Below the pieces are notes generated by a model, which ran no database searches, was not told the origin of the DNA, and saw only the letters and a program-made list of their open reading frames with translations. From Bacilli bacterium (GTDB lineage: Bacteria; Bacillota_I; Bacilli_A; ML615J-28; CAG-313), in contig CAADXH010000018.1 of the NCBI GenBank assembly GCA_900752975.1, positions 124,695 through 188,694 on the forward strand: a stretch of 64,000 nucleotides of DNA, in the 5' to 3' direction. This document shows, piece after piece, positions 18,918-64,000 of the stretch; position 1 is the first letter of the stretch, and each line of letters opens with the position of its first letter. Both the position numbers and the translations under genes were made by a program.

Positions 18918-20717
18918 TTAAAATTCTGGATTTACAAATTTAACTGAGTCATCAGGTTGTACAGTTAATTCATATAGACAAAGAATATTTTCTTTAGAAA
19001 TATCTCTTACTGCATAACCATTCATACCCAATACTTGAATTTTAGCATTTGCTTGCTTTTCACATTCTTGATTTGCTTCTATTGTATAGACTGGTTTTAC
19101 AATAGCAGTGTCCCCATCATAGTCCATCCCCATTGCACCTATTAATCCGTTACAAATAGAAAGAGTATCTTCAAACAGAGGAGATGTATTTGAATTTAAA
19201 TCTTTTGCTTCGATAACAGGATACCATTTGTAGAGTTTCATATTATCTTCGAATCCAGATTGAACAACCATAGGACAAGTTTTTACAGTAGATTTGATTC
19301 TAACTTTAGATGGATACTGATTTAAGAATGAGTCAATAGGGAAACGTGTAATTAATACCATCTTATCTTCAGTAACATCACATGCTGCCATATAAAACAA
19401 ATCACACCACGTAAGTCCTCTTTCTATTTTTAAATCAGCTGAGTATTCCTTTTTTGTTTTATTATAATCTTTAGCATTGTTTAATCTATATCCACCAAAA
19501 AACATACCAAATTTTAATGACTTTAAATCAGCTTTCTTTCCAGTAGAAGTTTTTACTTCGTTATTTTTAACTCGCCTTGCAAATTCTTCTTTATCTACAG
19601 GAAGTTCTATTGGAATAAAACGATTAGAATAACCATGAATAAAACGTTCAATCTGTTTCTCTAGTTCTACATCAGAGAATGCTATCTGATAATCGACCAA
19701 GGGAACATAGACAAATTCATTTTCATTAATCGCAATTGGATATTCCATTTTACCAGCAAATCTATTTTCGAAGAAACGTCTTAACCAGAATACAATAAAT
19801 GGTTTGAAACAACACAATGCTGCTGCTAACGGTAATGCAGCATGATTCATATCAATCATTAAATCATCTATTTCTTCTCCTGATACATCTGGTGCAGACA
19901 TTACCAAACGTGCGGAATAGTCTACTGTTTTATACAATGTACCACGTTTAATTAGACCCATTTTACCAGGAAGATTTGCTGGGGTTTCCTGTCCATTAAT
20001 TGTAGTACCGTTACCAAACCAGTCAAAGATTTGAAGTAAGATATTCTGTACTCTCGCTTTAGTAACTTCACTTAAAGTCAAGCCAAAACCAGCAGTCTCT
20101 TTCAATGATTTTGTAGCCATAATCAGACTACTATATAACTTATTAATTTCACCCACACCAATACCGTTATCTCTAGATTCAACGTCACGATAATATGGTG
20201 GAATTACAATGTACTTTGTAATCCATAATTGGTCTTTGCTCTTTTGAATAAAATCGATTCTTTTATTACGAGAAGATGAATCATTCTTCTTAAATTTTAT
20301 TTTACTAAAGTTCTTTCTTAACCAATCAATACCTGTATTACCATCATCAGACTTCACTAATTCTCCGTTACTATCAATGATAAAATACTCAGTACCATTT
20401 ACAATACTTTCAATTTTATTATTTAACTTACATAAAGTCTTATATACAATTGGATGGAAAAAAGAACCTCCTAAATCAATATAAGCAAAGATACCAGAAC
20501 GTTCTGCTTTTGTAATACCAAAGATTTCATTTGATAATAAACCATCTTCTGTTGGTGTTGGACCATTGAAAAATACTGGGTTAGTAACTTCTTTTAGCAT
20601 ATTCACTTTAACAAACTTTTCCATATCCAAAAGAGAAGTTTTTAAGTGTTGTGTACTTGCTTCTGTAAAAAAATCAGTATCGTTTTTAACGATATTAACT
20701 GCTTCATCTATAATCAT
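18918..20717 (-). CDS. multisubunit RNA polymerase beta-prime subunit, N-terminal fragment (contains the catalytic DYDGD loop)
   Basis: VLITRFPIDSFLNQYP....GAMGMDYDGDTAIVKPVY aligns with bacterial beta-prime NRAPTLHRLGIQAF...YNADFDGDQMAVHVPL. N-terminal GLLSNEIFG...IDLG.SFFHPIV resembles the clamp region but lacks the zinc finger. SD GGAAGGAG precedes MIIDEA. Confidence 0.65.
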   Translation of the reverse strand: MIIDEAVNIVKNDTDFFTEASTQHLKTSLLDMEKFVKVNMLKEVTNPVFFNGPTPTEDGLLSNEIFGITKAERSGIFAYIDLGGSFFHPIVYKTLCKLNNKIESIVNGTEYFIIDSNGELVKSDDGNTGIDWLRKNFSKIKFKKNDSSSRNKRIDFIQKSKDQLWITKYIVIPPYYRDVESRDNGIGVGEINKLYSSLIMATKSLKETAGFGLTLSEVTKARVQNILLQIFDWFGNGTTINGQETPANLPGKMGLIKRGTLYKTVDYSARLVMSAPDVSGEEIDDLMIDMNHAALPLAAALCCFKPFIVFWLRRFFENRFAGKMEYPIAINENEFVYVPLVDYQIAFSDVELEKQIERFIHGYSNRFIPIELPVDKEEFARRVKNNEVKTSTGKKADLKSLKFGMFFGGYRLNNAKDYNKTKKEYSADLKIERGLTWCDLFYMAACDVTEDKMVLITRFPIDSFLNQYPSKVRIKSTVKTCPMVVQSGFEDNMKLYKWYPVIEAKDLNSNTSPLFEDTLSICNGLIGAMGMDYDGDTAIVKPVYTIEANQECEKQANAKIQVLGMNGYAVRDISKENILCLYELTVQPDDSVKFVNPEF

Positions 20718-20822
20718 ATATGTTTCTCCTTCCATATTAATTTATAAGATTGTTAAAGAGACAAAAAAAGAAAGCCTAACTCACGTCAGTCTTTCTTTAA
20801 TCCTTACAGATGATGCTTTTGA

Positions 20823-21065
20823 TTAGGGTTCATCATAATAATCTTCATCATCGTCATAGTAATCTTCTTCATAGAAGTTACCAGTTGCTTTCTCAACCTC
20901 CCTTTCGATATATTCTTTATAATCAGAAACAGCCTTTTCAGCTGCTTCTTTGGAGTTGTATTCTCCAATAAGAATAAAATAATCTTCTGGAAGAATACTA
21001 GAGATGCAAATTTCATCGTCGAAATCTTCAGTTGTGTAAGCATAAAAAGTTGTATTTGCGTTCAT
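20823..21065 (-). CDS. small acidic hypothetical protein
   Basis: Immediately downstream of the conserved leader copy A; ends ..EEDYYDDDEDYYDEP. Confidence 0.5.
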   Translation of the reverse strand: MNANTTFYAYTTEDFDDEICISSILPEDYFILIGEYNSKEAAEKAVSDYKEYIEREVEKATGNFYEEDYYDDDEDYYDEP

Positions 21066-21232
21066 GGTAATAGCCTTTTCCCTTCACCCTGGGAACATAG
21101 AATTTCTACGTCTGATGCTTGAGGTTTCAGGTATGCATCAACCTGTTTTCGATATAGAGTAATATTACTATCTCTATTCACTATAATTATATATAAATGA
21201 ATATACATAGTTTTACAAATATATACGCCTTA
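21066..21232. promoter_or_regulatory. bidirectional promoter + conserved 5' leader cassette, copy A (inverted repeat partner of 34505-34672)
   Basis: ~170 bp that is near-identical (with one 10-bp indel) to the reverse complement of 34505-34672. The leader half (21066-21160) abuts the ATG of 20823-21065. The promoter-motif half (21176-21219, ATTCACTATAATTATATATAAATGAATATACATAGTTTTACAAA) faces 21288. Confidence 0.65.
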
Positions 21233-21287: not shown

Positions 21288-21482
21288 ATGGCTTTAGTAT
21301 GTGAAGAATGTATGAAAGGTGCACCTTACGCTTTCTGTTGCAAAAGAGAATGTGGAGAACATGAATTTTGTAGAGGTTGTACTTATCGAAAATCATTAGA
21401 AGAAACTCAGTGTTTCGATGATTCAATTGGATCAGAAGATTGGTTAAAAAAGTCTTCATCACTATTATCTGATTCATACTAA
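21288..21482 (+). CDS. small Cys-rich hypothetical protein (9 Cys in 64 aa)
   Basis: MALVCEECMKGAPYAFCCKRECGEHEFCRGCTYRK...; SD TGGAG. Confidence 0.5.
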   Translation: MALVCEECMKGAPYAFCCKRECGEHEFCRGCTYRKSLEETQCFDDSIGSEDWLKKSSSLLSDSY

Positions 21483-21504: not shown

Positions 21505-22062
21505 ATGAAAAAGCCTATTTATTATTACGCAGAAGAAACACCTCGGTTTGATGGGTATCATGTAGGACCACCTTGTCCTCCACCATATCCACCGTGCCCA
21601 CCTTGTCCACCACCGAAGCCACCAGTTCCACATTATCACGGTAAAGTAAGTGTTGTTGGACGTACTGTACTTACAGTTAAATATATTGATTGTCATGGAC
21701 ATTACCAAACATTTGATATTAGAGATGGTGAAACATATGAAATCAAAGCAGTATCTTCTACAAGAGGGATTTGTACATTTGCCGGTAGAATTGTGGATTT
21801 TGAATGTAATAAAGGAATCGAAAAGTTAATCGATAAACCACATGAAATCACAATCTCTGCTCTTATCGTAGATTATTCCGATGCATATGAAAGTAAACTA
21901 CTGAGATTATATGTAAATAACATTATCTCTATTAAACCAATTGTATGCTTTGATGGAAGAATGGATTATCCGACTCAGAAAGATTGTGATTGTCATGAGA
22001 GACCTTGTCCTCCCCCACCACATCATCCTGAACACATTTATGATCCATTCGAAGATATCTAA
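21505..22062 (+). CDS. Pro/Cys-rich hypothetical protein (PPCPPPYPPCPPCPPPKPP)
   Basis: SD TAAGGAGGT; N- and C-terminal CPPP-type repeats. Confidence 0.6.
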   Translation: MKKPIYYYAEETPRFDGYHVGPPCPPPYPPCPPCPPPKPPVPHYHGKVSVVGRTVLTVKYIDCHGHYQTFDIRDGETYEIKAVSSTRGICTFAGRIVDFECNKGIEKLIDKPHEITISALIVDYSDAYESKLLRLYVNNIISIKPIVCFDGRMDYPTQKDCDCHERPCPPPPHHPEHIYDPFEDI

Positions 22063-34504: not shown

Positions 34505-34672
34505 GTAATGACTTTGTAAAACTGCGTATATTCACTTATATATAATTATAGTGAATAGAGATAGTAATATAAGCTATATTCTATATCGAAAACAGGTTGA
34601 TGCATACCTGAAACCTCAAGCATCAGACGTAGAAACTCTACGTTCCCAGGGTGAAGGGAAAAGGCTATTATC
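34505..34672. promoter_or_regulatory. bidirectional promoter + conserved 5' leader cassette, copy B
   Basis: Reverse complement matches 21066-21232. The motif half (34514-34557) faces 32146-34455. The leader half (34576-34672) abuts the ATG of 34673. Confidence 0.65.
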
Positions 34673-35122
34673 ATGACCAACACAACTACTGCAACAAACA
34701 ATGCAATCGCTTCCGCTACGACAAACGGCTTTACCTTTGAAGCTGTGCTGAATGAAGTATCAGTTACTGATACAATGCACGCTACAATGGTAGAAACAAT
34801 GTTCAACATTGTTGTCACCAACACAGTAAGAAAGGGGGTACATGTTACCGAAAACTATCTCAAAAGAATGAACGAAACGTTCGAAAAGTTTTTAAAAGCA
34901 ACCAAAATCAAATATGTCAAGTCGGATATCGATCTTGACAGAACATTTGATGAAAAAACATTCATCTTTGAAGCAGACAAAGATGAATGGGAAGAAAATG
35001 CAATCAGCTTGATTGCATTATTAAAGAAAGAAAGAATCACATTTGACGAAAATACAGAAGAAGGATTTATCTGCTATGATGAATCTCAGAATTCTGAAAA
35101 AGATTTAATTATCGTCGAATAA
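34673..35122 (+). CDS. hypothetical protein (Thr/Ala-rich N-terminus)
   Basis: Directly follows the conserved leader; 149 aa. Confidence 0.5.
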   Translation: MTNTTTATNNAIASATTNGFTFEAVLNEVSVTDTMHATMVETMFNIVVTNTVRKGVHVTENYLKRMNETFEKFLKATKIKYVKSDIDLDRTFDEKTFIFEADKDEWEENAISLIALLKKERITFDENTEEGFICYDESQNSEKDLIIVE

Positions 35123-35143
35123 GAATTTCAACTGAAAAAGATA

Positions 35144-35178
35144 AGAACGCACTATTGCCAAGTGCGTTCTTTTTTTGT
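35144..35178. terminator. rho-independent terminator
   Basis: AGAACGCACT-ATTGCCA-AGTGCGTTCT hairpin followed by TTTTTTT. Confidence 0.7.
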
Positions 35179-35804: not shown

Positions 35805-37841
35805 TTATGCTCCAATCTCCTTAGGCTTACTATACAAATAACCATCCTTAAGACTATTATAGATTTCAGTAAAGTTATTAAAATCAGACTTATCGAAATC
35901 AAATTTAGGTTGTTCAAATACAGACTTATCTCCACAAGCCATTGCATTAACAATCTTCAAATCTCGTTTATTTTTACAATTAATAAACAATCCACGATTA
36001 TCAACTTCTGGTTTTCTGGATACATCGTCAAAATCATGATACGTCAATATACCATTCGGTCGTCTTACTGTTGTGAAATACTCAATGATGTCATCATACA
36101 TTTCTTCATAACCAGCAAAATGGAACCAACGACTAAAGAATTCAATCCAGTTATGTGACTGTAAATCATCCATGAATTGAGCTTCTCTTCTCCATTTGAT
36201 TTCATCTCTATGAAATCTATTTTCAAATTCATATACCTTTTCTGGGATATTAACATGCCCAATCAATGTCGTCTGCGACATGTTAAATTCAGATGTGATT
36301 GATGGATACAAAGACTTATAATCAAAGTCATCCAGATTATTAAAGATAGATACTGGAATACCATTAATTCTCATCTTAGAATAATCACTATTATATTTCG
36401 GGTCTGCAACAAATGCACCTGGGAATTTTTCTTTCGGTGTATTCTGATTTGTATTATTACCCATAATCATTCCATATCTATAATATGACTTTGCTGCTCG
36501 ATTCTTAAGATATACAGTTTGACGATATATTTTTGACCAACGAGTATTGTCTAACAATACATTATTATATGCAGAGTCAATATCATTTACTTTAAACTCT
36601 ATACAATACTGTACAATTGTATCCATAATATTATAGAATACGAATGTTTCATAATCTTTATATGGTAATTCTGCAAGTTTCGTTGTAATATGACTATAAT
36701 CAAGTTTCTTTACACCACAAGTAATCTGTCCGATATAATCCAACTTATAATTCTCAATCGCTTTTTGTCCCTTTCGTCTAGACGCAAAATGAATCATCTG
36801 ATCAAGATACACCGAATATGAACTAATCTTTGCGAAGTCATTTCTTTCTTCATAATTAAACTTATTCTTCTCATCAATAAAGTAATTTACTTCTTTATAT
36901 CTGAAATCTGGATGACACATAATATCCTTTGGATTATATCCAAGATTGATAATTCGTTGGATGATATACGGAATATCGAATGCCATGTTCCATGCTAGCA
37001 CAGTATCTGGTTTGATATTGTTAATATAATTGAATAGGTGTTTTAATAAAACAATCTCATCTTCTTCATCATAGAAATGAAATTGAACAGTCATCTTATC
37101 AATCTTATACTTACAAGCTTGTTTCTCTCCACCAACCGCATCGATTAAGAATTGTCGTAATCGCATATTCAATGATGGTTTATTACATTCTTTTTCAAAT
37201 TTCTCAATCAATGGATTCTCTTTATTTCGTAATAAGAATGAATGAACAACCAAGGACTGATCATCAATAAATGATACTGCATTGATTGGACATTCACCAA
37301 GTTCTACGAATTCACCCTTACAATCAATTGTATCAGCTTCAATATCAAGAAATGATTTCGATGGTTTGGTATAACTATTCTCATATGAGTTCGCAAATTG
37401 AAACCTGATGTTATCTTCAATATCCATATCAGACATCAGGATCGCTGGGTTATAATTACATAACACTTTATTTGCAGCTCGATTCCGATTACGAATGTTT
37501 TCAAAGAACTCATTTGTTTTTCCTAATCGGTCTGCAATGTCTTTTTGAAGAGATATAAACGGCGTGATGATTCGTTTACAATCTTCTTTCATTGCATATT
37601 CCAAAGTATATCTTGGAACTTCTTTTCCATCAAGTAGCATATAATATTCATACTCAGGATTAATTATTGTTTCCAAAAACTTTTCACCTGACCGAATATC
37701 TTTGATAATCAAATCAATTGCCGGTGATAACCATTTCCCATTCGGATCTTTCTTTGGGTAATGGTAAATCGTGTTTAATAAAGATAACGGATATCCTTTT
37801 GGATATTGACCTATCAAAAAATCATCTTCGTAATATTTCAT
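35805..37841 (-). CDS. family B DNA polymerase, N-terminal part (3'-5' exonuclease domain + polymerase motif A)
   Basis: Exo I FLDIEAD; Exo II AWNMAFDIPY; motif A DFDYKSLYPSI. The ORF stops about 170 aa after motif A, and motifs B and C are absent. SD TAGGAGGC. Confidence 0.75.
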   Translation of the reverse strand: MKYYEDDFLIGQYPKGYPLSLLNTIYHYPKKDPNGKWLSPAIDLIIKDIRSGEKFLETIINPEYEYYMLLDGKEVPRYTLEYAMKEDCKRIITPFISLQKDIADRLGKTNEFFENIRNRNRAANKVLCNYNPAILMSDMDIEDNIRFQFANSYENSYTKPSKSFLDIEADTIDCKGEFVELGECPINAVSFIDDQSLVVHSFLLRNKENPLIEKFEKECNKPSLNMRLRQFLIDAVGGEKQACKYKIDKMTVQFHFYDEEDEIVLLKHLFNYINNIKPDTVLAWNMAFDIPYIIQRIINLGYNPKDIMCHPDFRYKEVNYFIDEKNKFNYEERNDFAKISSYSVYLDQMIHFASRRKGQKAIENYKLDYIGQITCGVKKLDYSHITTKLAELPYKDYETFVFYNIMDTIVQYCIEFKVNDIDSAYNNVLLDNTRWSKIYRQTVYLKNRAAKSYYRYGMIMGNNTNQNTPKEKFPGAFVADPKYNSDYSKMRINGIPVSIFNNLDDFDYKSLYPSITSEFNMSQTTLIGHVNIPEKVYEFENRFHRDEIKWRREAQFMDDLQSHNWIEFFSRWFHFAGYEEMYDDIIEYFTTVRRPNGILTYHDFDDVSRKPEVDNRGLFINCKNKRDLKIVNAMACGDKSVFEQPKFDFDKSDFNNFTEIYNSLKDGYLYSKPKEIGA

Positions 37842-38107
37842 ATTTAGCCTCCTAATCATCAACGAACGTAATACGTTCTTTCAATCTATTTATATATTTG
37901 TTTTCTCTGATGTAAAAGAAAAAATTATCTCCACAGAATGAACTGTGGAGATATCCAAATAAAATTAACAAGAGGAAAACAAACAAACTTCACAAGAGGA
38001 AAATCATGTCAACCAGATTTAAGGTCTTCCAACCTTATTTAAATGTTAACAAATATTAACGATTTATAAGAAAAACATCTCTATAAAATCACAAAGGAGG
38101 AAATAAC

Positions 38108-54002: not shown

Positions 54003-56102
54003 ATGGATATCACACAAATGGTTAACAGTCCGACAGTAGATATATATAAGAATGAGATGTTGGATGCTCTGAAACTATCATTTCCTGGTTTGACAGAATT
54101 TGATTTGAGAGAAGCAATCGATTATTCTATTGTAAAGAGAGGTAAGGATAGTAAAGCATATCTAGATAATAACTACAAAAAAGTAAGGGAAAAGAGAACT
54201 CTGTTTGAGATTACAGATTATATCATTCAAAGAGAACCGATTATTACAGTATCTGGTGTTATGTTTAAGAAACATGGTTCTTGTCCAAACCCATTCGTAA
54301 GATTAATTCAAGAGTTCTTGGAACAAAGAGGAATCTATAAAAAAACAATGTTCAAGTATCCGAAAGGTTCAGAAGAATTTGAAAAGTATAATATTCTTCA
54401 ACTTTCGGAAAAAGTTTCTGGTAATGCAATGTATGGTGCATCTGGTAATCATACAAGTGTCTTCTATAATCTTTATGTAGCAAGAAGCATTACAATGCAA
54501 GGTAGAAGTTGTATTGCAGCTGCTATTATGCTGTTTGAAGCTACAATGGCAAATAATGTAAAACTTCTCAGTTTAAACGATGTTGTTACATTTATCAATA
54601 ATGTAAGAAGAGAACCAATTGGAAAATATCCTGATGAGATTATTCTTGATAAAGATAAGTATGTGACAGCAGAAGAATGTTTCTTTAAAATCTTATACAG
54701 TTGTGGATTCTATTGGATTCCAACTGAAAAAGAAATGACTCTGATTTGGGATATTATTAATCAATGTAGTCAGCATGAGTTGAACAAATTGTTTTATAAA
54801 AACAATCTATTCTGGTTTGTAGATAATAGCGTCGTAATGAATAAAATTTTAAGTATTTTGTCTACTCTTGATGCACCATTTATTGACCCGAATGAACCAC
54901 CGGAATCTATCAAAGGAATGATGGATGAATTATATGATATGATATTTGAATGGGTTTATTATGATAAACAGTATATGGATAGAATCGATAGAACTGAGAA
55001 TATGTATCGTTGCGTATCTATGCTTACAGATACAGATAGTTGTTTCATTTCATTTGATGGATGGTATCGTTATATTCTAGATAAAACATTCAATATTCCA
55101 ATGAAGATTAAAGAACTTGAAATCGAAGAAAAAACTGGTGAAATAAAAGAAGCTTTTGATATTTCATATGACTATGATTTCTATACAGATGAAATTATTG
55201 AAAGTCAGAACATTATTAGACCTGACGTTATCACACCTCAAGTAGGATTCCGTTGTAGTATTATCAATATTCTTGCTAGTATTATGGGGAAACTTGCAAT
55301 TGACTATATGGGTAAGTATTCTGATAACTCTAATTCTACAACTTGTTATGACGGTTCAAAGCGTAAGAGTTTCTTCATTCTTAAGAATGAGTTTCAACTT
55401 AAACGTGCTCTTATTACGGATGGTAAAAAGAACTATTGTGCATATCAAGAAAGACAAGAATCTAATATCATCCCAAAAGAAAAAGCATTATCAATTACAG
55501 GTATGCCGATTAAAAAAGTTGGTGTTCCGGAATCTACTAAGATTAGATTACAGAGAATTTTACTCGACCAAGTACTTGATAATCCTGGAGAAATCTCTCA
55601 AGTAGAAATTGTAAAGCAACTAGCTGTGTTGGAAAAACAAATCATTGAAGCAATCGAAAATGGTAGTAAGGATTATTTCAAGCCTGAAAGAATTAAAGCA
55701 TTCAGTGCATATGATACTCCGATGAGAGAATCTGGTATTAAAGCATCTGTTGCATTTAATTTCTTGAAAGATGATAATATGGAAGCAATTGACCTAGACC
55801 AAAGAAACAGTATTCTAAATATCAAAGTAAACATTGACAAAAAGAATGTTGATGGGTTGAAAGAAAAGTATCCACAGATTTATGAAAAAGCGGTAGAGCT
55901 GATGACTACAAAAAAAGAATTCGCTAAGGGAATTACAGGTATTGCAATTCTTGATAATATGCAAGTTCCGGAATGGGTAAAAGATTATATTGATTATGCA
56001 ACAATTGTAAATGATAATCTTCGTTCATTCCCATGTGAAGCATTAGGTATAGACCGTATTGAAAATAAGTATATAAACTATACGAATATTTTGAAGTTCT
56101 AA
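54003..56102 (+). CDS. family B DNA polymerase, C-terminal part (motifs B, C, KKxY; palm/fingers/thumb)
   Basis: Motif B KVSGNAMYG; motif C LTDTDSCFISF; KKxY region GKKNYCAYQ. SD TTGGAGGT. Begins about 130 aa before motif B and has no exonuclease domain or motif A. Confidence 0.75.
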   Translation: MDITQMVNSPTVDIYKNEMLDALKLSFPGLTEFDLREAIDYSIVKRGKDSKAYLDNNYKKVREKRTLFEITDYIIQREPIITVSGVMFKKHGSCPNPFVRLIQEFLEQRGIYKKTMFKYPKGSEEFEKYNILQLSEKVSGNAMYGASGNHTSVFYNLYVARSITMQGRSCIAAAIMLFEATMANNVKLLSLNDVVTFINNVRREPIGKYPDEIILDKDKYVTAEECFFKILYSCGFYWIPTEKEMTLIWDIINQCSQHELNKLFYKNNLFWFVDNSVVMNKILSILSTLDAPFIDPNEPPESIKGMMDELYDMIFEWVYYDKQYMDRIDRTENMYRCVSMLTDTDSCFISFDGWYRYILDKTFNIPMKIKELEIEEKTGEIKEAFDISYDYDFYTDEIIESQNIIRPDVITPQVGFRCSIINILASIMGKLAIDYMGKYSDNSNSTTCYDGSKRKSFFILKNEFQLKRALITDGKKNYCAYQERQESNIIPKEKALSITGMPIKKVGVPESTKIRLQRILLDQVLDNPGEISQVEIVKQLAVLEKQIIEAIENGSKDYFKPERIKAFSAYDTPMRESGIKASVAFNFLKDDNMEAIDLDQRNSILNIKVNIDKKNVDGLKEKYPQIYEKAVELMTTKKEFAKGITGIAILDNMQVPEWVKDYIDYATIVNDNLRSFPCEALGIDRIENKYINYTNILKF

Positions 56103-56150
56103 ACAAAAAAGAAGAATGGATGTAGAGTCCATTCTTCTTATTCTGTCTTT
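56103..56150. terminator. bidirectional rho-independent terminator
   Basis: AAGAAGAATGGA-loop-TCCATTCTTCTT hairpin flanked by an A-run and a T-run. Confidence 0.7.
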
Positions 56151-56671
56151 TAGCAAGCTTTGCAGTCAAGACCAAACATTCCGATTAAATCTAATGCCCA
56201 GCTAACATTCAGCTGACGTTCTGCATAAGGTTCAATTCCGATTGTTTCACAATTATGATTATTACAGAATTCTATTAAAGCTTCAGACGCATCGTCACGT
56301 TCTACGATTTCCATCTCAAATAACTTTTCAAGAATTTCATGTAAATAAACCCAATCGCTAATATACTGCATTACCTGAGATGCATCTTCAGCAGACATGC
56401 CACCGAACATGCCGATCAAATCTTCAACCAGGCTAATATTCAGCTGACGTTCTGCGTAAGGTTCAATTCCGATTGTTTCAGAATCGTGTTCATTCATCCA
56501 AGATACGAATGCACCATTCATGTCTTCCAGATTAGCTGTATCCATTCCGAAGCCAAACAGCTTTTCGGAAATTTCACACAGATAAATGTAGTCATTCAAG
56601 TAAGAGATAACTTCCTGTGCGTTGTTAGCGGTTGCGATTGCAATATTGTTCATCATTTTAGCGTTCATCAT
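56150..56671 (-). CDS. hypothetical protein made of two ~80-aa internal repeats
   Basis: The segment ..ETIGIEPYAERQLN.S...DLIGMFG occurs twice. SD GGAGGC precedes MMNAKMMN. The ORF-track N-terminal extension is leader sequence. Confidence 0.55.
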   Translation of the reverse strand: MMNAKMMNNIAIATANNAQEVISYLNDYIYLCEISEKLFGFGMDTANLEDMNGAFVSWMNEHDSETIGIEPYAERQLNISLVEDLIGMFGGMSAEDASQVMQYISDWVYLHEILEKLFEMEIVERDDASEALIEFCNNHNCETIGIEPYAERQLNVSWALDLIGMFGLDCKAC

Positions 56672-56833
56672 AATAAGCCTCCAAAGTTTCCGGAACATAG
56701 TGAACTATCAATATAGGTTTGTTCCAATAACCATATAATGATATTGTACATTGTTGTACGGCTCAGTTTTAAGTCATCCAAGCGTCCAGACTAAATAGAC
56801 CTTTCTAAGGATAATACTATAATACTATCTTCT

Positions 56834-56877
56834 ATTCATTATAATTATATATAAGTGAATATAGGTAGTTTTACAAA
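56834..56877 (+). promoter_or_regulatory. third copy of the recurring promoter-like motif
   Basis: ATTCATTATAATTATATATAAGTGAATATAGGTAGTTTTACAAA, about 65 nt upstream of the ATG at 56942. A diverged leader-like sequence (GGAACATAG...) lies on the other side, upstream of 56150-56671. Confidence 0.55.
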
Positions 56878-56941: not shown

Positions 56942-59900
56942 ATGGCTGTTTCAGTTCAGAAATATATTAAAAATATGGCAAAATCTGTAGCTTATACAAC
57001 TTCAGATGTATTACAAACTAAGTTTGAATATGTTAAAGAATTTAAAGACGAGAATAAAGAAGTCTTTAAAGAAGTTTATCATTCTGTACATGATTATAGA
57101 ACTACATTTGCCAGAGTGAAAAAAGCTATTACAAATAATAAAATAATAGACGCTGCCAGAGTAGGGTATGATTCTGTTCTATATAGTATTACTACCGGTG
57201 ATTTCTATGCAAAGAATAGAGAAAATGAAATATCTGAAAAATATGGCGGTTCCATAATGGCAGATCTTGATATCGATGATGACGATTTCAACTGGGATAA
57301 TGAAGATATTTCTACTGGTGAAAAGGTTATTGCTACGGCTGTTAAAAAGAATAGTAAGATTAATACTGCTCTAACAGTTGAAGCAATTGCAAAAACTGGT
57401 AAAGCACAAATGGATGTTGCAAAAGAAAACACTATGCTGTTATATACTCAAAACGAACGTATGCTAAATAAGTTAGATACTGGGTTTGAGAATGTATTAG
57501 GTTTTCTTAAGCAGAATGGTGAACAAACTGCCAAGATTCAAAATCAAATGAATGAGAATCTTAATAAGTTTATGACCAATGTGGATAATAATGTAGCGAA
57601 ATTAACTGCACAAATGGATGAACTTCTTAAGATGCAGAGAAACATGTATAATCCTCAGAAACAAGAAGAACAAAATAAAAGAGCTGGATACGACGATCTT
57701 ATTAGTCGTGGTGGTGTATTGAATATCAGAGAGTATGCGAAGCATGTTAAAAGACAAGCTTTTAATACGTTAAATAGTTTGACAGGTAATGGTCTTAGTA
57801 TGTTACTTGGTGATACAACAGGTGAAAATTCTAACTTGTTAGCACAGTTTGCTGCTACACCATTTAGAAGTACAATGGCTACGTTAATGAATAAAGCACT
57901 TGGTGCTAGATTCGATAAAGCAGCTGCTGAATTAAATACTACATTAGCAGGAATTATTCCATCATTAATTGCAAAGATGAATAATGCTGGTAAGAAAAGT
58001 GATAATGGTATTATGGGTTTCTTAGGTAAGATTTTTGGTATCAAAGATAAATCTAATGAAACTATTAATCCAGGAGCATATAATAAGGGTGCTATTCCGT
58101 TTGATGGAATAACTAAACGTGCGATTACAGATGTAATCCCATACTATTTAAGAAAGATGACGTCTGCATTAACTGGTGGACAAGAAATGACATATAACTA
58201 TGAATCTGGTAGATGGATGACTGTACGTTCATTATTAGCAGAACATAAGAATGTCAATGAGTCTGCATTAAATAGCACTACTTCAACATTACTTAGTATT
58301 CTTGAAAGTAATATGAATGGACGTAGACTAAGTAATTCTTTTGAAAATAAAAAAGATTATGATAGTTTCATGAATGCTCTAAGACAGTATGCTAGTCGTG
58401 TTCAAAATGCTGGTGGTGATGTTGGTTCTATTAAAGAATCAGATCTTAGAGGTGCTGAAAGAGAAGTTCATAATGCGTTACGACATGTTCTTCAAATATC
58501 TTATGGTGGATATAATAATGCAGCTTATAACGGTGATAGAAGATATGTAGAAAGAAATGGAAAAAGAGTTGAATCTGGTCTAGGAAGAAGTGCAATTAGT
58601 ACTTTAAGTACTACTGTCAGAGAACAAATCAAATCTCAAAATTCTACTATTAAGAGTATTAATGCTGGTAACTCTATCTTATATCAAATTGATGCTGAAG
58701 GATTAGCAGGCGTTGATCCTAAGAACTTCATAGGAAAAGCAATGCAATATAATCAACATGGTGATATGACAGATAGATATGTTCAAGAATTACCAATGTC
58801 TCAATCTTTACTTCGTGCAAAGGATGAATATGGTTATACAATCTATAACTATTTAAGAGATATGGGTGGAAGTCTTAGATTCATTAAAGCCAATTCTATC
58901 TATCTTGCTGGTATTGAAGCTCTTGGAAATCTAGTAGCTGCAGGTAATAGCTCAAAACGTGGTAAAAAAAGAAGAAAATCTAATTCAAGTCCATCTCAAG
59001 AAAATTGGGATAGACTATTTAATGCATCTTCTAATCAAGATGTAAAATATGATAATAAGAAAGATGAAAAGTATTCTCATACTTATTATCAAGATCAATA
59101 TAAAAAGAGTGTTGATAATTCAGAGGTATCTTATAAGAAAAATATTCAGAATGCTAAAAAGAGAGCTGCTGAAAAAGGAAAAAGCTTCGAAACTGCTACT
59201 AGTACTGATTTTCGTAGTTCTGATGATGAAATCGGATTAGCAAGAATCATGATGGGTGCAGAAAGCGATATTGTCGCTGGTGCAATTGTAGAAGAAGAAA
59301 AGAGAAAGAAAAAGGAATCTGATGAAAGATGGAAGAAGTTAGAAGATATCTTTGGTTCAGATCGTGCTAAGAAATTTAGAGAAGCATCAGAAAAATTCAA
59401 TAAAGAACAAACTTTAAGTAAGAATATGGAGAAAGTAAAAGACCAAGGCTTTGGTGCAAACTTAGTAATGTTTACTAAGTGGGCAAGCGATAAAGTAGGT
59501 AAGCCTGGAGATCTGATGGCAGATAATATTCTCAAAATAGATTATTGGTTACAGAAAGTAATTTATGGTGAAGACTTACGACCAGAAGATCAAAAAACGT
59601 CTTTCTTCGGACATATCAAAAAAGAAATCAGAGATGGCTTTACTTTAGTATCTGATAAGATTTCTGAAACCTTTGAAAAAGTAAGAGATAAGATAAAACC
59701 TTATCTTGAAAAACCAATGAACTTCTTATTTGGTAAACCAAATTCTGAAGGAATTCGAGAAGGCGGTGTATTCGGTGGATTCATTGGAGGAATGCAAAAA
59801 GGTCTTCGAAAGAATGCTGAAGATGTAGCAAAATATGTAAAAGAACAAGCTGCTGAAAAAGCAAGAAAACTAAAGTCCTCTCTTAAGCCAGAAGACCGTG

Positions 59901-62900
59901 AAGACGACGATGATACCAGTTCTTCTAGTAATAGTGGTTCTTCCAGTAGCCCAACTCATCGGTCAAAACCGAGAAGATTTATAGATTCTGATACAAGACA
60001 ATATATTTATAATGAAAATACTAATTTAAGATATAACCCCGACACAGCAACTACTTCAGAACAATATGCAACTAAACGAGAAAATTTTATAAATCATTTT
60101 AAATATAGACAAACTAGAGATAGATGGACTTGGGGTGAGGTCCAAGCAACCAATTCGTTGGCAAATTATCAAAAAATGCGTAATCACCAAAAAAATCAAT
60201 ATGAAGTAATACGTCAAGGAGATGAATATGTAAAAATTACTTCAGATGCAGAAAGAGCAAAATCAAAACAAAATTTAATTAACGAATTATCTGCTAAGAT
60301 TCAAAATCAAGAAAATGCTATTACTCAATATAATAAAATGCAAGAAAGAAAAGAAGAATTAGAAAATAGATTAGAAGAAATACGTGAAGAATTGGCAGAT
60401 ACTGATCCAACTGATGTTGTAACTAGACATAAACTTGAAAAAGAAAAAAGTGATGTTATCAGTCAACTCAATAGTACAACTGGATGGATAAGTAAACAAA
60501 AAAGCAATATAGTCAAAACTAAAAATAATCTGGAAGCAAATAAAAATAAGTTACAAAAGATTCAAAATTCTGTAACTAGAATAAAGAGAATGGCCGTTGG
60601 TGGTATTAATAAAACTGGACGACCATTCCAATCTGTATTATCTGCTGGTGAATTACATAACGGTGTGCCTGTTCCATCTATGGGTATTTATACTGTTAAT
60701 CCTGGTGATGTTATTGTTAACCCAGCCAATAGTTCTACTAGAATGAAACAAGCAACGGCAGAAAAAAATTATCTTAATAATATTAGAAGAAATGCAGAAG
60801 CAAATGATAAATTAACTGCAGCTCCAGAAGAAGCATCAAAGAAAGATGATAAAAACACTGAAAAAGATGCTAATAAAATGGCAGAGCTAATGACAAATAG
60901 AGACTGGACTACATTAACCAGTAAAGAACAAAGAGCAGAATTCTTAGGAAATGTTGCTTCTAGAGGTCTTATTGGTGGTGGATTAGGTCTTCTCGTTGGT
61001 GGTCCTTTATTAGGTGCAGCTGTTGGTGCAGCATCTTCATTGACAAAATCTACTGATGCTTTCTCTAGTCTATTATTCGGTAAAGCAATCAAGGATAAAG
61101 ATGGAAATGTAAAAGTAGATGAAAAAGGAAATATCGAAAGAGAAGATAATGGACTTATTAGTAAAGAAATTATGAAGGCAATGCCAGATGTAAAGAAATT
61201 TAGTCTTGGCGGTGCACTTGCTGGATTGATAACTCCTCTTGGTCCAATCGGTGGTATTATTGCTGGTTCTGCATTAGGTTTCGCTAAGAATTCTGAAATG
61301 TTCCAAGGTTCTCTGTTTGGTGACGGTGGTGTATTCTCAGATAAAAATATCAATAAGATTAAGAAAGGTGCTAAGAATATTGGTGCTGGTGCAATCATTG
61401 GTGCTCTTGCATTACCTGGTCCATTTGGTATTTTAGGTAACGCTCTTATTGGTGCTACTGCAGGCTATATTACTTCTACTGATAAATTTAAAGATGCTTT
61501 ACTTGGTGAAAAGATTGACCCTAATGATCCTAATAGTAAACGTAAAGGTGGTATTGTTGGTAGAATCAAAATGGAAATGGTTCCATTAAAGGATTTCGGA
61601 ATGCATCTTCGTGATAATATTATGGATGAAATATTCGGTAAAGATGAAGGTGAAGGACGTAAAGGTGGATTATTTGGTGCTATCAGAGATAATATGGTTA
61701 CACCACTTATTGAAGGTAGTAAATCTGTATTCCAATCTTTATCAAATAGTGTTTCTGATATGGCTCATTTACTTGGTGATACATATAAGAAACTTAGGGC
61801 AAGATGGGTTGGAAATGATTTCTTTGGTGGAGCAATTGAAAAGCTTGATTCTCTATCAGGTGGTCTTATTAAAGGTGCTGGTAGTATTGGTAGAGCAATG
61901 ACAAAACCATTTAGACTTCTCGGTGAAGATGGTATTGGTGGTGCACTTACTGCCGGTAGAATTAGAAAAGGTACAGAAATCGGTAAGACCGCTAGAGAAA
62001 GAATGATTTTCAGAACAAAACATAAGTTAGGTCAAGATGATAAATTCTATAACTCTGATAAAGCGATGTCTAATATGTCTCAAGATGACTTAATGGTAGC
62101 TCAGACTCTATTACAATTTGGTGATAGTAGAGACAATATTGATAAAGCTAGAGATGAAGATTATAGAGTTCTTGGACAAACTTTAAGAGAAAATCTAAAT
62201 AGATCTGATTCTAAAAAGATTGTCAAGATGATCAAAGAAGGAGATATTGCTGGTGCTCAAAGATTTGCTAGAACTAGAAAAGCATCTGATGAAGCAAAAT
62301 CAAATGTAGCATCTATGATAGCTAGGCATCAGAATAAACTTGAACAGTATAAGAAAGCTAGTGACAGAATTAATAATTCTGGTAAAACAGCTCAAGAGTT
62401 ATTAAACGAAATTGGCTTAAATGTAGATACAAGTGATGCTTCTTCTGTAAGATATATGCAGAAGCAATTGCAAAGAGAAATTGCTCATAACAATGCTGGT
62501 TTAACAGATGAAGAAATCGAATATGATAAGGTTAGAGAAATTTGGGCTGACCCAGATAAATCTCCTTTGAAGAATGTAAATACTGGTGTATCTGGAATTC
62601 TTGATCAATTAAAAGGTATTTATGCTGAAATTAAATTAGGAAATGAATATGACAAACTATCAAATTCTGAGAAAGCAGAATATAATAGTAAAGATGATTA
62701 TATTAATAAGAATAAAGCAAAACTGGCAGCTGAGCCTGAATCTGAATCTGTCGAAAAAACAAATATCGGTAAAGCTGGTAATTTAGCAGATGCTGTTCAT
62801 GTTAATCCACAGACGAATCTGTATCAAAAAATGAAAGCTGTAAAAGACCAAGAAAAGATTAAACATCTTCGTGAGATTGCTGATAGAGGTGTTAGAATGT

Positions 62901-64000
62901 TTAACAACGCTATCATTGCAGAACTTAATGATCCTGAGAAAGTAAAGGTTGATATTGAAGAACAATTTGGAGAAGGTAAAGACGAATACTCTCCTGCAAA
63001 AGCAATTAAAAGAGAAATGACTATTGAAAAGTTTGAGAAAACTTATACTTTCACAGTTTCTTATATATGCACGAATAAAGGTGATATTAAAGTTCCAACT
63101 GATCAAGAAGAAGATTTTGAACAAAACAGAGATCAATTTGTAAGTGATTATATGGAACGCTTTATGCCAAAAGAAACCGCTATCGATAGAGCATTTGATA
63201 AGATTCCTAGTCTTACATTCGGAAATATTATTAAGAGTTCTATTAAAGCTGCTGGTGTATTAGGTATTGCTAGTTTGTTCCCTCTTGGTGCAGTGGTTGG
63301 ACTTCCTGCATTAGGTGCTCTCAAAGTTGGTAAATGGGCAGCTAAGAAATTCGATGTTAAAGGAAAAATAAAGCGTGCTAAAAATAAATTAGTTCGTGGT
63401 ATTAAACATAAACTAGGTTCTCATGAACTAGATATGGATTCAAAACATCAACAAAAGAAAGATGAAAAATATAGAAGCAAAGCTAGAAAAGAACTATTAA
63501 AAGCTATTGACAATGATGATCCAGCATTGAATGATTTATCAAATGAAATGTATGGTTCTGATTATCAAGACCTAAGTGAAGATGAAAAGAAGGAAGTTAA
63601 TCATCAATTCATTGAAAACTATGTATCTGGTAAGCGTTCTAAACAATTAAGTGGTCACGGACTTGTTGGTAATATAAAAGCTGCTGGTCGAAACATTAAG
63701 TCTGGTGTTAAAAATGCAGTTGCTGGTAGTTTGAAATTCGTTAAAGCTAAGAAAGAAAAAGCTCAGCAAGAAGAAACATTCCTTGGAAAGTTTTTTGATA
63801 GACTTGATAAATGGAACTTAAAGAGAGAAAGAAAACTTGTAGATGGTAAGAAAGACAGTAAACTAGCAAAGATTCTGAAATGGTTATTTGTTGGTGGTAT
63901 TGCTGCTCCAATTATCGTAGGTTTCGTAAAAAATAAAATAGTTCCAGCCGTTCAAGAAAAAATTGCTCCATTCTTAAAGAAAGTCGGACAGAAAGTTATC
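56942..64000 (+). CDS. giant protein of more than 2350 aa, truncated by the window end; tape-measure-like / giant virion protein
   Basis: SD AAAGGAGGA precedes MAVSVQKYIKNMAKS.... No complete + strand ORF of 60 aa or more is listed in this frame from 56942 to the end, which implies one continuous frame. It carries coiled-coil K/E-rich stretches and Gly-rich hydrophobic blocks (GLIGGGLGLLVGGPLLGAAVGAAS; IGAGAIIGALALPGPFGILGNALIGATAG) typical of tape-measure proteins. Confidence 0.6.
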   Translation, partial: MAVSVQKYIKNMAKSVAYTTSDVLQTKFEYVKEFKDENKEVFKEVYHSVHDYRTTFARVKKAITNNKIIDAARVGYDSVLYSITTGDFYAKNRENEISEKYGGSIMADLDIDDDDFNWDNEDISTGEKVIATAVKKNSKINTALTVEAIAKTGKAQMDVAKENTMLLYTQNERMLNKLDTGFENVLGFLKQNGEQTAKIQNQMNENLNKFMTNVDNNVAKLTAQMDELLKMQRNMYNPQKQEEQNKRAGYDDLISRGGVLNIREYAKHVKRQAFNTLNSLTGNGLSMLLGDTTGENSNLLAQFAATPFRSTMATLMNKALGARFDKAAAELNTTLAGIIPSLIAKMNNAGKKSDNGIMGFLGKIFGIKDKSNETINPGAYNKGAIPFDGITKRAITDVIPYYLRKMTSALTGGQEMTYNYESGRWMTVRSLLAEHKNVNESALNSTTSTLLSILESNMNGRRLSNSFENKKDYDSFMNALRQYASRVQNAGGDVGSIKESDLRGAEREVHNALRHVLQISYGGYNNAAYNGDRRYVERNGKRVESGLGRSAISTLSTTVREQIKSQNSTIKSINAGNSILYQIDAEGLAGVDPKNFIGKAMQYNQHGDMTDRYVQELPMSQSLLRAKDEYGYTIYNYLRDMGGSLRFIKANSIYLAGIEALGNLVAAGNSSKRGKKRRKSNSSPSQENWDRLFNASSNQDVKYDNKKDEKYSHTYYQDQYKKSVDNSEVSYKKNIQNAKKRAAEKGKSFETATSTDFRSSDDEIGLARIMMGAESDIVAGAIVEEEKRKKKESDERWKKLEDIFGSDRAKKFREASEKFNKEQTLSKNMEKVKDQGFGANLVMFTKWASDKVGKPGDLMADNILKIDYWLQKVIYGEDLRPEDQKTSFFGHIKKEIRDGFTLVSDKISETFEKVRDKIKPYLEKPMNFLFGKPNSEGIREGGVFGGFIGGMQKGLRKNAEDVAKYVKEQAAEKARKLKSSLKPEDREDDDDTSSSSNSGSSSSPTHRSKPRRFIDSDTRQYIYNENTNLRYNPDTATTSEQYATKRENFINHFKYRQTRDRWTWGEVQATNSLANYQKMRNHQKNQYEVIRQGDEYVKITSDAERAKSKQNLINELSAKIQNQENAITQYNKMQERKEELENRLEEIREELADTDPTDVVTRHKLEKEKSDVISQLNSTTGWISKQKSNIVKTKNNLEANKNKLQKIQNSVTRIKRMAVGGINKTGRPFQSVLSAGELHNGVPVPSMGIYTVNPGDVIVNPANSSTRMKQATAEKNYLNNIRRNAEANDKLTAAPEEASKKDDKNTEKDANKMAELMTNRDWTTLTSKEQRAEFLGNVASRGLIGGGLGLLVGGPLLGAAVGAASSLTKSTDAFSSLLFGKAIKDKDGNVKVDEKGNIEREDNGLISKEIMKAMPDVKKFSLGGALAGLITPLGPIGGIIAGSALGFAKNSEMFQGSLFGDGGVFSDKNINKIKKGAKNIGAGAIIGALALPGPFGILGNALIGATAGYITSTDKFKDALLGEKIDPNDPNSKRKGGIVGRIKMEMVPLKDFGMHLRDNIMDEIFGKDEGEGRKGGLFGAIRDNMVTPLIEGSKSVFQSLSNSVSDMAHLLGDTYKKLRARWVGNDFFGGAIEKLDSLSGGLIKGAGSIGRAMTKPFRLLGEDGIGGALTAGRIRKGTEIGKTARERMIFRTKHKLGQDDKFYNSDKAMSNMSQDDLMVAQTLLQFGDSRDNIDKARDEDYRVLGQTLRENLNRSDSKKIVKMIKEGDIAGAQRFARTRKASDEAKSNVASMIARHQNKLEQYKKASDRINNSGKTAQELLNEIGLNVDTSDASSVRYMQKQLQREIAHNNAGLTDEEIEYDKVREIWADPDKSPLKNVNTGVSGILDQLKGIYAEIKLGNEYDKLSNSEKAEYNSKDDYINKNKAKLAAEPESESVEKTNIGKAGNLADAVHVNPQTNLYQKMKAVKDQEKIKHLREIADRGVRMFNNAIIAELNDPEKVKVDIEEQFGEGKDEYSPAKAIKREMTIEKFEKTYTFTVSYICTNKGDIKVPTDQEEDFEQNRDQFVSDYMERFMPKETAIDRAFDKIPSLTFGNIIKSSIKAAGVLGIASLFPLGAVVGLPALGALKVGKWAAKKFDVKGKIKRAKNKLVRGIKHKLGSHELDMDSKHQQKKDEKYRSKARKELLKAIDNDDPALNDLSNEMYGSDYQDLSEDEKKEVNHQFIENYVSGKRSKQLSGHGLVGNIKAAGRNIKSGVKNAVAGSLKFVKAKKEKAQQEETFLGKFFDRLDKWNLKRERKLVDGKKDSKLAKILKWLFVGGIAAPIIVGFVKNKIVPAVQEKIAPFLKKVGQKVI

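Follow-up and report, generated by a model that had tools for sequence, protein, structure and literature searches.

A repeated, probably structured leader within a probable portable early-gene cassette of an uncultured jumbo phage

Why do genes for unrelated proteins start behind almost the same untranslated leader? The question is raised by a stretch of 64,000 nucleotides (nt), called the window in the following (contig CAADXH010000018.1 of assembly GCA_900752975.1, positions 124,695 to 188,694, filed under Bacilli bacterium), in which an earlier note had described one conserved leader ahead of the genes starting at 34673 (+) and 21065 (−). We think it rather probable that this element is most of a 5' untranslated leader of about 120 nt, here named type A, which is itself part of a portable expression cassette of about 165 base pairs (bp), and that the leader shields the mRNA and sets its translation. 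From its gene content, the genome that carries the cassette appears to be a jumbo phage of about 215 kb and a distant relative of phage AR9.

The repeat itself is larger than first described. The 55-mer CTATATCGAAAACAGG...GACGTAGAAA is found in two exact occurrences, at 34581-34635 (+) and 21103-21157 (−), with 0 expected in shuffled sequences, and it lies within a near-identical leader of about 115-120 nt ahead of both genes, which confirms the observation of the earlier note. Pairwise alignment of the two copies traces their homology from TTTGTAAAAC (34513 on the plus strand, 21219 on the minus strand) to just beyond the ATG, about 165 bp, with abrupt edges at both ends and differences limited to a few substitutions and one 6-nt loop indel. 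The repeat therefore reaches about 65 nt farther upstream than the start given by the earlier note and takes in a promoter-like block. This block, the upstream 40 nt of the repeat, reads TTGTAAAACTnnnTATATTCAyTTATATATAATTATArTGAATAGA, has the layout TTTGTAAAAC-N13-TTATATATAATTATAGTGA and is present in the window at 34514 (+), 21218 (−) and 56876 (−); looser searches of the window gave no copies beyond these three. In copy 1 (34513-34552, +), the −35-like upstream element TTTGTAAAAC is followed by the AT-rich core TTATATATAATTATA at 34536-34550. Copy 2 (21173-21219, −) was delimited by repeat and alignment, and its type A leader of about 114 nt (21066-21179, −) carries the helices of copy 1. 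Copy 3 (56831-56876, −) was located by a search with the conserved block. The site before 56671 (−) had been taken for a diverged version of the same leader, which proves not to be the case. Apart from the promoter, its likeness to type A is limited to the first ~20 transcribed nt and the short motif CUAUGUUCC; between these shared parts lies a different leader of about 166 nt (56672-56837, −), which has the same 5' start region and its own set of helices and is termed type B.

What reads the promoter block? The core TTATATATAATTATAGTGA is kept in relatives whose neighbouring 769-amino-acid (aa) virion protein is 81-98% identical, among them relatives in which that protein reaches only 81-90%, and there the core is found ahead of many small genes; TTTGTAAAA, about 13 nt upstream of the core, is conserved in ~60% of copies. 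In jumbo phages that encode their own RNA polymerase (RNAP), early genes are headed by a highly conserved AT-rich motif centred near −10 that is read by the injected virion polymerase, and the consensus of the AR9 early promoter is AAATATATATTAT-N6-G(+1) (PMC5312081; PMC7598289). The block in the window resembles this promoter and is most likely a virion-RNAP early promoter. Its extended AT-rich motif is repeated before early genes, with three exact copies in the window and further ones in the relatives, and the phage encodes subunits of a multisubunit RNAP, as expected for promoters of the AR9/phiKZ type. With AR9 it shares a highly conserved AT-rich motif of ~11-15 nt before small early genes and before an RNAP subunit gene, since behind promoter copy 2 an 80-aa gene is followed on the same strand by an RNAP beta'-like gene, with no terminator found between the two. 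It also shares the split multisubunit RNAP and the length of the 5' untranslated regions (UTRs). Those of phiKZ are mostly 31-40 nt; those of AR9 are long, 26-491 nt, and contain conserved motifs whose function is not explained (PMC5312081). The window phage differs from AR9 in having the core TTATATATAATTATAGTGA and a beta' subunit with only 27-34% aa identity to those of AR9-like phages, and its start site and polymerase are assigned by analogy. Transcription would start near G34553 (within 2 nt on either side), because the AR9 spacing rule points to this residue and the conserved helices reach these first bases. A reading of the block as a sigma-70-like promoter is weak, with 9 of 12 matches (TTGTAA-18-TATATT). 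We also note a 7-bp inverted repeat, ATTCACT-N13-AGTGAAT, that brackets the core in an operator-like arrangement at 34530-34556 (+), 21176-21202 (−) and 56834-56860 (−). Its left arm is not kept in more distant relatives, and two variant copies in the window alter the same base pair.

The gene content of the window, which has a G+C content of 32%, is in line with a phage of this kind. The 605-aa RNAP beta'-like protein (18918-20735, −) matches phrog_2986 (E=2.6e-83), contains the motif DYDGD and is 27-34% identical to proteins of AR9-like jumbo phages of Listeria, Staphylococcus and Bacillus and of Fusobacterium phages. By homology it is a counterpart of the AR9-like beta' subunits and would belong to either the virion or the non-virion enzyme. 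The family-B DNA polymerase (PolB) is divided between two genes on opposite strands, 35805-37862 (−) and 54003-56102 (+), about 16 kb apart, with the exonuclease/N-terminal part matching phrog_3011 and the palm/C-terminal part matching phrog_2927. The large virion protein of 769 aa is encoded in the window as well. Viromes and metagenomes, among them some of the human gut, contain the close relatives as contigs of 213-225 kb, and a BLASTN search against 50,697 phage records returned no match at the DNA level and no cultured phage.

Does the leader fold? The two hairpins that the earlier note had proposed for type A can both form, namely UUGAUGC (34597-34603) with GCAUCAG (34620-34626) around a 16-nt loop, and ACGUAGA (34627-34633) with UCUACGU (34637-34643) around the loop AAC. 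They are part of a larger predicted arrangement on the plus strand. The inferred start and the 5'-terminal hairpin P0 occupy 34553-34588; P0 proper spans 34555-34584 and pairs AUAGAG (34555-34560) with UUCUAU (34579-34584), including an inner AUAG/CUAU helix and a possible GA/UC extension. The first of the two proposed hairpins corresponds to a helix S2, and its 16-nt loop holds the 3' strand of another helix, S1. As ACCUG in this loop is complementary to CAGGU just 5' of the hairpin, an H-type pseudoknot is possible at 34593-34625. It would consist of S1 (34593-97 with 34606-10, CAGGU/ACCUG), S2 (34598-603 with 34620-25, UGAUGC/GCAUCA) and the A-rich loop 3 AAACCUCAA (34611-19). The second proposed hairpin is P2 (34627-34643, ACGUAGA-AAC-UCUACGU), which is followed by P3 (34644-34659, UCCC/GGGA with the loop AGGGUGAA). 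P3 directly adjoins the Shine-Dalgarno sequence AAAGG at 34660-34664, which as read from the sequence is separated from the ATG (34673-34675) by an 8-nt gene-specific spacer that co-varies with the downstream gene family. Of the purine-rich stretch that had been proposed as Shine-Dalgarno sequence, only this 3' AAAGG, 8 nt from the AUG, qualifies; the GGGA(A) part is paired with UUCCC. The helices of copy 2 are the same, except that P2 contains a G-U pair and that the loop of P0 is shorter.

Variation among the type A leaders respects these helices. The set comprises 20 distinct sequences, all at least ~85% alike and from one shallow clade. Overall, 99.5% of the stem cells are paired, and S1 and S2 are 99-100% paired and hardly ever vary. 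Ten stem cells depart from the commonest pair, seven of them to G-U and three to non-pairs. Variable columns are enriched among the unpaired positions (25/55, against 10/63 paired; Fisher p=0.0006), also when promoter and spacer are left aside and only the core is counted (p=0.012). In P2 the stem is kept while the loop changes (AAC, AAU, AUU, AAA or an insert of 9-10 nt), and the stem changes, in 4 cells, are to G-U only. P3 has the loop variants UGAA, UAAA and AUAA, and in L226 and L254 it shows a paired co-deletion, in which the CCC run and its partner GGG are each shorter by one base. L007 carries four differences around S1 and S2, with both stems intact. Among 2000 dinucleotide shuffles, a single one attains 11 bp in the pseudoknot topology. 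Since S1 and S2 abut directly, the pseudoknot could form only with one or two of the pairs at the junction opened, which leaves roughly 4 + 5 bp. For type A the support for structure is indirect; taken together with type B (below), it makes RNA-level structure likely for these leaders, with the pseudoknot as a modelled candidate. A few competing pairings were set aside. The central multiloop of the minimum-free-energy fold (CCUCA with UG-AGG across P2) is broken by loop variants in 6 of 20 copies, UUGAUG can pair with the start-codon region for one gene only, and an antisense terminator reading of the S1 hairpin (CAGGTATGCATCAACCTG, then TTTTCG) loses its T-run in the CAAATACAGG variants. Separately, ACCUGAA ACCUCAA at 34606-34619 (+) is a tandem 7-nt repeat, the second ACCU of which is an alternative S1 partner of AGGU. 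ACCUC within it resembles the core of the 16S anti-Shine-Dalgarno sequence, and sequence variation favours neither S1 alternative.

Is this leader fixed to its promoter? In the relatives, the same core is followed by type A, by type B or by a short leader of 15-60 nt, and per complete relative there are roughly three or four leaders of type A, two or three of type B and several short ones. The leaders are also not tied to the protein family behind them, as one family is found behind type A in one place and behind type B in another; the L009 protein is 32% identical to the 149-aa protein of the window. Type B, with 19 distinct sequences in two subtypes, repeats the layout of type A in other sequence, with a 5' closing helix, an inner hairpin and a pseudoknot-capable core. 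AAAC in loop 3 is common to both types. For the window copy, AGUC/GACU and GCUU/GAGC are arranged in pseudoknot topology and a GGAAC/GUUCC helix lies just before the Shine-Dalgarno sequence. The core of subtype B2, GGUCU/AGACC with UGCUC/GAGCA, sits in the same relative place as in type A and is matched in 9 of 2000 shuffles. Type B diverges more widely than type A and includes a few true compensatory changes. Its first S1 pair is AU in 10, GC in 5, GU in 3 and unpaired in 1 of the copies, and one hairpin changes from GUAC/GUAC to GCAC/GUGC. The motif G(U/A)UCC before the Shine-Dalgarno sequence has an upstream pairing partner in 19/19 copies, in the versions GGAAC/GUUCC, GGAUC/GAUCC, UGGAU/AUCCA and GGGGU/AUCCC and in the G-U variant GGGAC/GUUCC (L248). 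A scan for further type B variants in which S2a was left free returned only sequences already in the set.

The feature common to all these leaders is found at their very beginning. For each of the 15 leader types examined, a hairpin is predicted in which the invariant start region (G)UGA(A)UAG is paired with a downstream partner whose sequence varies by type, for example GAAUAG/CUAUUC, AUAGAG/CUCUAU, GAUAAAG/CUUUAUC, GAAGAAUAGU/ACUAUUCUUC and AAGGACA/UGUCCUU. Predicted pairing begins 1-6 nt into GUGA(A)UAG in each of the 15, measured from the presumed 5' end of the transcript. No other structural feature in these models is as general among the early transcripts as this 5'-terminal hairpin.

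What does the cassette carry, and where does it end? Behind type A copy 1 lies a 149-aa early gene (34673-35122, +), which is hypervariable between near-identical genomes. The unit is closed at 35143-35171 by a bidirectional hairpin resembling an intrinsic terminator, with an 11-bp stem and T-runs on both strands. Comparison of the window with three near-identical genomes across this locus gives nucleotide identities of 96-99% for the flanking genes, 93-96% for the promoter and 90-94% for the leader, then 64-65% for the 149-aa coding sequence (CDS), 87-93% for the terminator region and 96-99% for the next gene. Identity falls most sharply in the CDS, so that leader and terminator bracket an open reading frame (ORF) that has been swapped. 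Homologs of the 149-aa protein are only 54-66% identical at the aa level and yet stand behind the same leader, with alleles at 56-58% aa identity behind essentially the same leader. In more distant relatives this locus either lacks a cassette or is occupied by one with a short leader or by a type B cassette that carries another gene. Loop and linker variants are combined in mosaic fashion within the type A leaders, which points to exchange among copies. The other two cassettes carry a very acidic 80-aa early gene (20823-21065, −) behind copy 2, ahead of the RNAP beta'-like gene, and a 173-aa early gene with an internal duplication (56150-56671, −) behind the type B leader. Pfam and PHROG searches assigned no family to the downstream proteins, and BLASTP finds them mutually unrelated. 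The earlier note had called these proteins unrelated, which agrees with BLASTP but overlooks that several cassette genes of the clade have a common low-complexity N-terminal segment rich in N, T and A. Examples such as MxNTTT..NNxIASAT are seen at 34673-34730 and 56671-56620 (−) of the window and in L001, L012, L127, L237 and others; at the DNA level they read ..AACAAC(A/G)CAATCGCATCCGCTAC.... Since these starts are alike, cassette homology can run 30-60 nt into the coding region. The segment could be an unstructured A/C-rich translation-initiation region, a common N-terminal tag or a footprint of recombination.

Taken together, these results suggest the following course of events. An injected virion RNAP would read the AT-rich core TTATATATAATTATAGTGA and start near G34553, and the first transcribed bases would pair at once into the terminal hairpin P0. 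A compact stack of helices would follow, formed by the candidate pseudoknot S1/S2 and the hairpins P2 and P3, which stops exactly at the modest Shine-Dalgarno sequence AAAGG, 8 nt before the AUG. Most likely, P0 and the further helices would shield the early mRNA from decay that depends on its 5' end, and the ribosome-binding site would be kept in a fixed context, so that any small gene plugged into the cassette would gain the same early, robust expression until the terminator closes the unit. The conserved ends, the 5' leader and the 3' terminator, could at the same time act as homology arms for the exchange of hypervariable early ORFs. Near-identity of the leader ahead of unrelated genes would then be due to duplication of the cassette together with recombination. 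The earlier note's proposal of a cis element acting at the RNA or DNA level and common to unrelated genes agrees with this, and its suggestion of stability or translation control stays the best reading, although it had overlooked the promoter cassette, the interchangeability of the leaders and the boundary of ORF swapping.

Several observations weigh against a function of the folded leader. The earlier note had named covariation among homologs as a test, and by this measure type A falls short: no pair is changed on both sides, giving 0 compensatory pairs in the 20 distinct copies. This absence is explained by the likeness of the available copies, and a shuffle control on type A was uninformative because the stems hardly vary. 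Given the missing linker between S1 and S2, not all 11 pseudoknot pairs can coexist. Nested minimum-free-energy folds of the central part of type A differ between copies, S2 of type B is mismatched in 4 of 19 copies, and the folding energies of the 5' hairpins are mostly unremarkable when compared with shuffles (z +0.2 to −5.8). Start site, polymerase and host rest on inference throughout. At 90-94% identity, the syntenic leader does not surpass the adjacent coding DNA (96-99%) in conservation, and with all type A copies coming from a single shallow clade, recent spread and gene conversion alone could explain the conservation.

These points lead to the rival that survives best, in which the element is no more than a scar of recombination: the promoter and leader were recently duplicated and homogenised by gene conversion, they serve to provide promoter and ribosome-binding site, and the predicted helices do nothing in themselves. 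Besides the lack of compensatory changes and the ordinary conservation of the syntenic leader, this is favoured by the mosaic nature of the copies, in which loop variants, linker variants and A or G at the base of P3 occur in all combinations, and by the fact that other early promoters of the same phages work with leaders of 15-60 nt. We nevertheless hold it to be unlikely, for variation avoids the stems, the stem changes are mostly to G-U and the co-deletion preserves P3. Moreover, types A and B, which are unrelated in sequence, both keep a 5' hairpin, a pseudoknot-capable core and a helix before the Shine-Dalgarno sequence, and in type B some changes truly compensate.

A stronger claim would be that types A and B are two sequence families of one new class of pseudoknot-containing early-mRNA leaders of jumbo phages with an active role. 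We regard this as doubtful. If there is such a class, its members could act like exonuclease-resistant RNAs (xrRNAs) as a roadblock to the 5'-to-3' exonuclease RNase J1 of the host, or could offer a handle to a phage protein that shuts off or selectively translates the hypervariable early gene set.

Somewhat more doubtful still is a riboregulator, in which the pseudoknot and hairpins bind a phage or host protein or a small ligand and thereby switch the early gene set jointly. Translational operators that invite this comparison are the leader pseudoknot of T4 gene 32 mRNA and the targets of RegA. The former is an H-type operator with ~5 + 6 bp, a short loop 1 and an A-rich loop of 7-9 nt, placed 50-90 nt before a phage start codon, all of which is similar to type A; it differs in regulating a single gene that controls itself, whereas the type A leader serves several unrelated genes. 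Judged as an H-type operator, both leader types have a topology that is rare in shuffles, type A has no covariation, and type B has one covarying S1 pair and an S2 that is imperfect in the 4 copies mentioned. Loop 3 (AAACCUCAA), which is unpaired, hardly varies, nor do the junctions, and this hints at tertiary contacts or a binding partner; one leader in front of several genes could be the handle of a regulon, and the helices adjoin the Shine-Dalgarno sequence without linkers. For GUUCC in type B two partners are conceivable, GGAAC upstream and the Shine-Dalgarno sequence (UGGAG). As an anti-Shine-Dalgarno element it was rejected, since the upstream GGAAC-type strand is its partner in all 19 copies, and in type A neither the Shine-Dalgarno sequence nor the AUG is clearly sequestered. 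Rfam, which the earlier note had recommended for a search, yields no riboswitch or other family either: Rfam 15 at gathering thresholds gives 0 matches over the whole window, and at E<=10 both leader regions give only noise, with miRNA and snoRNA models at 10-16 bits against cut-offs of 40-319 bits. The leader is confined to one phage clade, with 0 matches in a scan of 185,579 bacterial and archaeal genomes. These results speak against a riboswitch, and no candidate binding protein was identified.

An element acting as DNA, be it an operator formed by the inverted repeats, a downstream promoter element or a signal for RNAP pausing, is very improbable. Inverted repeats can be read equally well on DNA, and a separate one, ATTCACT...AGTGAAT, surrounds the promoter core. 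The same promoter, however, carries wholly different leaders (type A, type B or short), the left arm of that repeat is not kept in relatives, and 7 of the 10 deviating stem cells are G-U on the sense strand, which means an A-C mismatch on the other strand or a broken DNA symmetry. It is hardly credible that the leader is a separate small RNA, there being no terminator between leader and gene, or that the mini-ORF AUG CAU ACC UGA (34600-34611) acts alone: its AUG and in-frame stop are present in all copies, but the AUG is conserved because it lies inside stem S2a, the upstream Shine-Dalgarno-like sequence is poor, and the MHT reading was rejected as the peptide is not conserved (MHT, MQT, MYT, MQ).

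How does the cassette compare with known systems? Its behaviour at boundaries is that of the promoter-early stem-loop (PeSL) elements of T4-type phages, which are mobile regulatory cassettes (PMC2839356; PMC4122927). Both are short, conserved, repeated motifs next to variable ORFs without assigned function, at the borders of replacements and indels between close relatives; here identity falls from leader to CDS and recovers at the terminator, and the cassette is present, replaced or absent in relatives. The composition differs. PeSL fuses a terminator stem-loop to a sigma-70 early promoter, ~50-70 bp in all, whereas the jumbo-phage joint combines a phage-type promoter with a structured 5' UTR of 115-170 nt, has its terminator separately after the ORF and has no terminator-like hairpin upstream of the promoter block. 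The second comparison is with 5' stabilisers of mRNA, of which the stem-loop and polypurine kinds listed for Bacillus are the aprE leader, ermC and the polypurine element of phage SP82, next to the ompA 5' UTR of E. coli (PMC3997798). Likenesses are the hairpin at the very 5' end, predicted in our case, the purine-rich ribosome-binding tract, the long leader and its portability between genes. The stabilisers have no counterpart of the pseudoknot-capable core, and for the jumbo-phage leader a stabilising role would be suggested by this likeness.

The kinds of component are thus known already: a jumbo-phage early promoter, a 5' stabilising hairpin and a shuffling cassette. New is their combination, whereby early genes of an uncultured gut jumbo-phage clade are swapped at a conserved joint formed by a modular leader with a pseudoknot-capable core. 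Once inside a hostile cell, jumbo phages that carry RNAP have only minutes to express their first set of small genes. The cassette suggests how one such clade achieves this, by a fixed promoter and a modular structured leader that drive interchangeable ORFs. The hypervariable early genes probably serve anti-defence or host takeover, and the cassette may be used as a marker for early genes, likely anti-defence ones, in metagenomic jumbo phages. Gene shuffling mediated by regulatory motifs would thereby be extended from T4-type phages to RNAP-encoding jumbo phages. No current view is overturned, and the two unannotated candidate RNA motifs can be tested as portable mRNA stabilisers or translation modules.

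Some further observations concern sequences outside the clade and the neighbourhood of the cassettes. Nearly all matches in a 14-mer scan of viral contigs were due to chance, and matches to GTTCCCAGGGNNAAGGGA outside the clade (L126, L128, L129) were judged likewise. L126:1640-1700 (IMGVR_UViG_3300045988_085425), an unrelated viral contig of 83 kb from the same sample, has GGTTCCCAGGGTGAAGGGAAG directly before a start codon, which matches the type A leader over 20 nt in its P3/Shine-Dalgarno part, probably by chance as well. An antisense ORF at 34546-34824 (−) was dismissed, as copy 2 has no counterpart. An ORF of more than 2,352 codons (56942-64000, +), which has no PHROG family match, diverges from the type B promoter and leaves the window at its end. 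Two proteins without family match are encoded divergently from promoter copy 2, a Cys-rich one of 64 aa (21288-21482, +) and one of 185 aa (21505-22062, +) with proline/cysteine repeats (PPCPPPYPPCPPCPPPKPP) at both ends. The 80-aa protein at 20823-21065 (−) is extremely acidic, with a D/E/Y-rich tail (EEDYYDDDEDYYDEP), and resembles in composition the DNA-mimic anti-restriction proteins.

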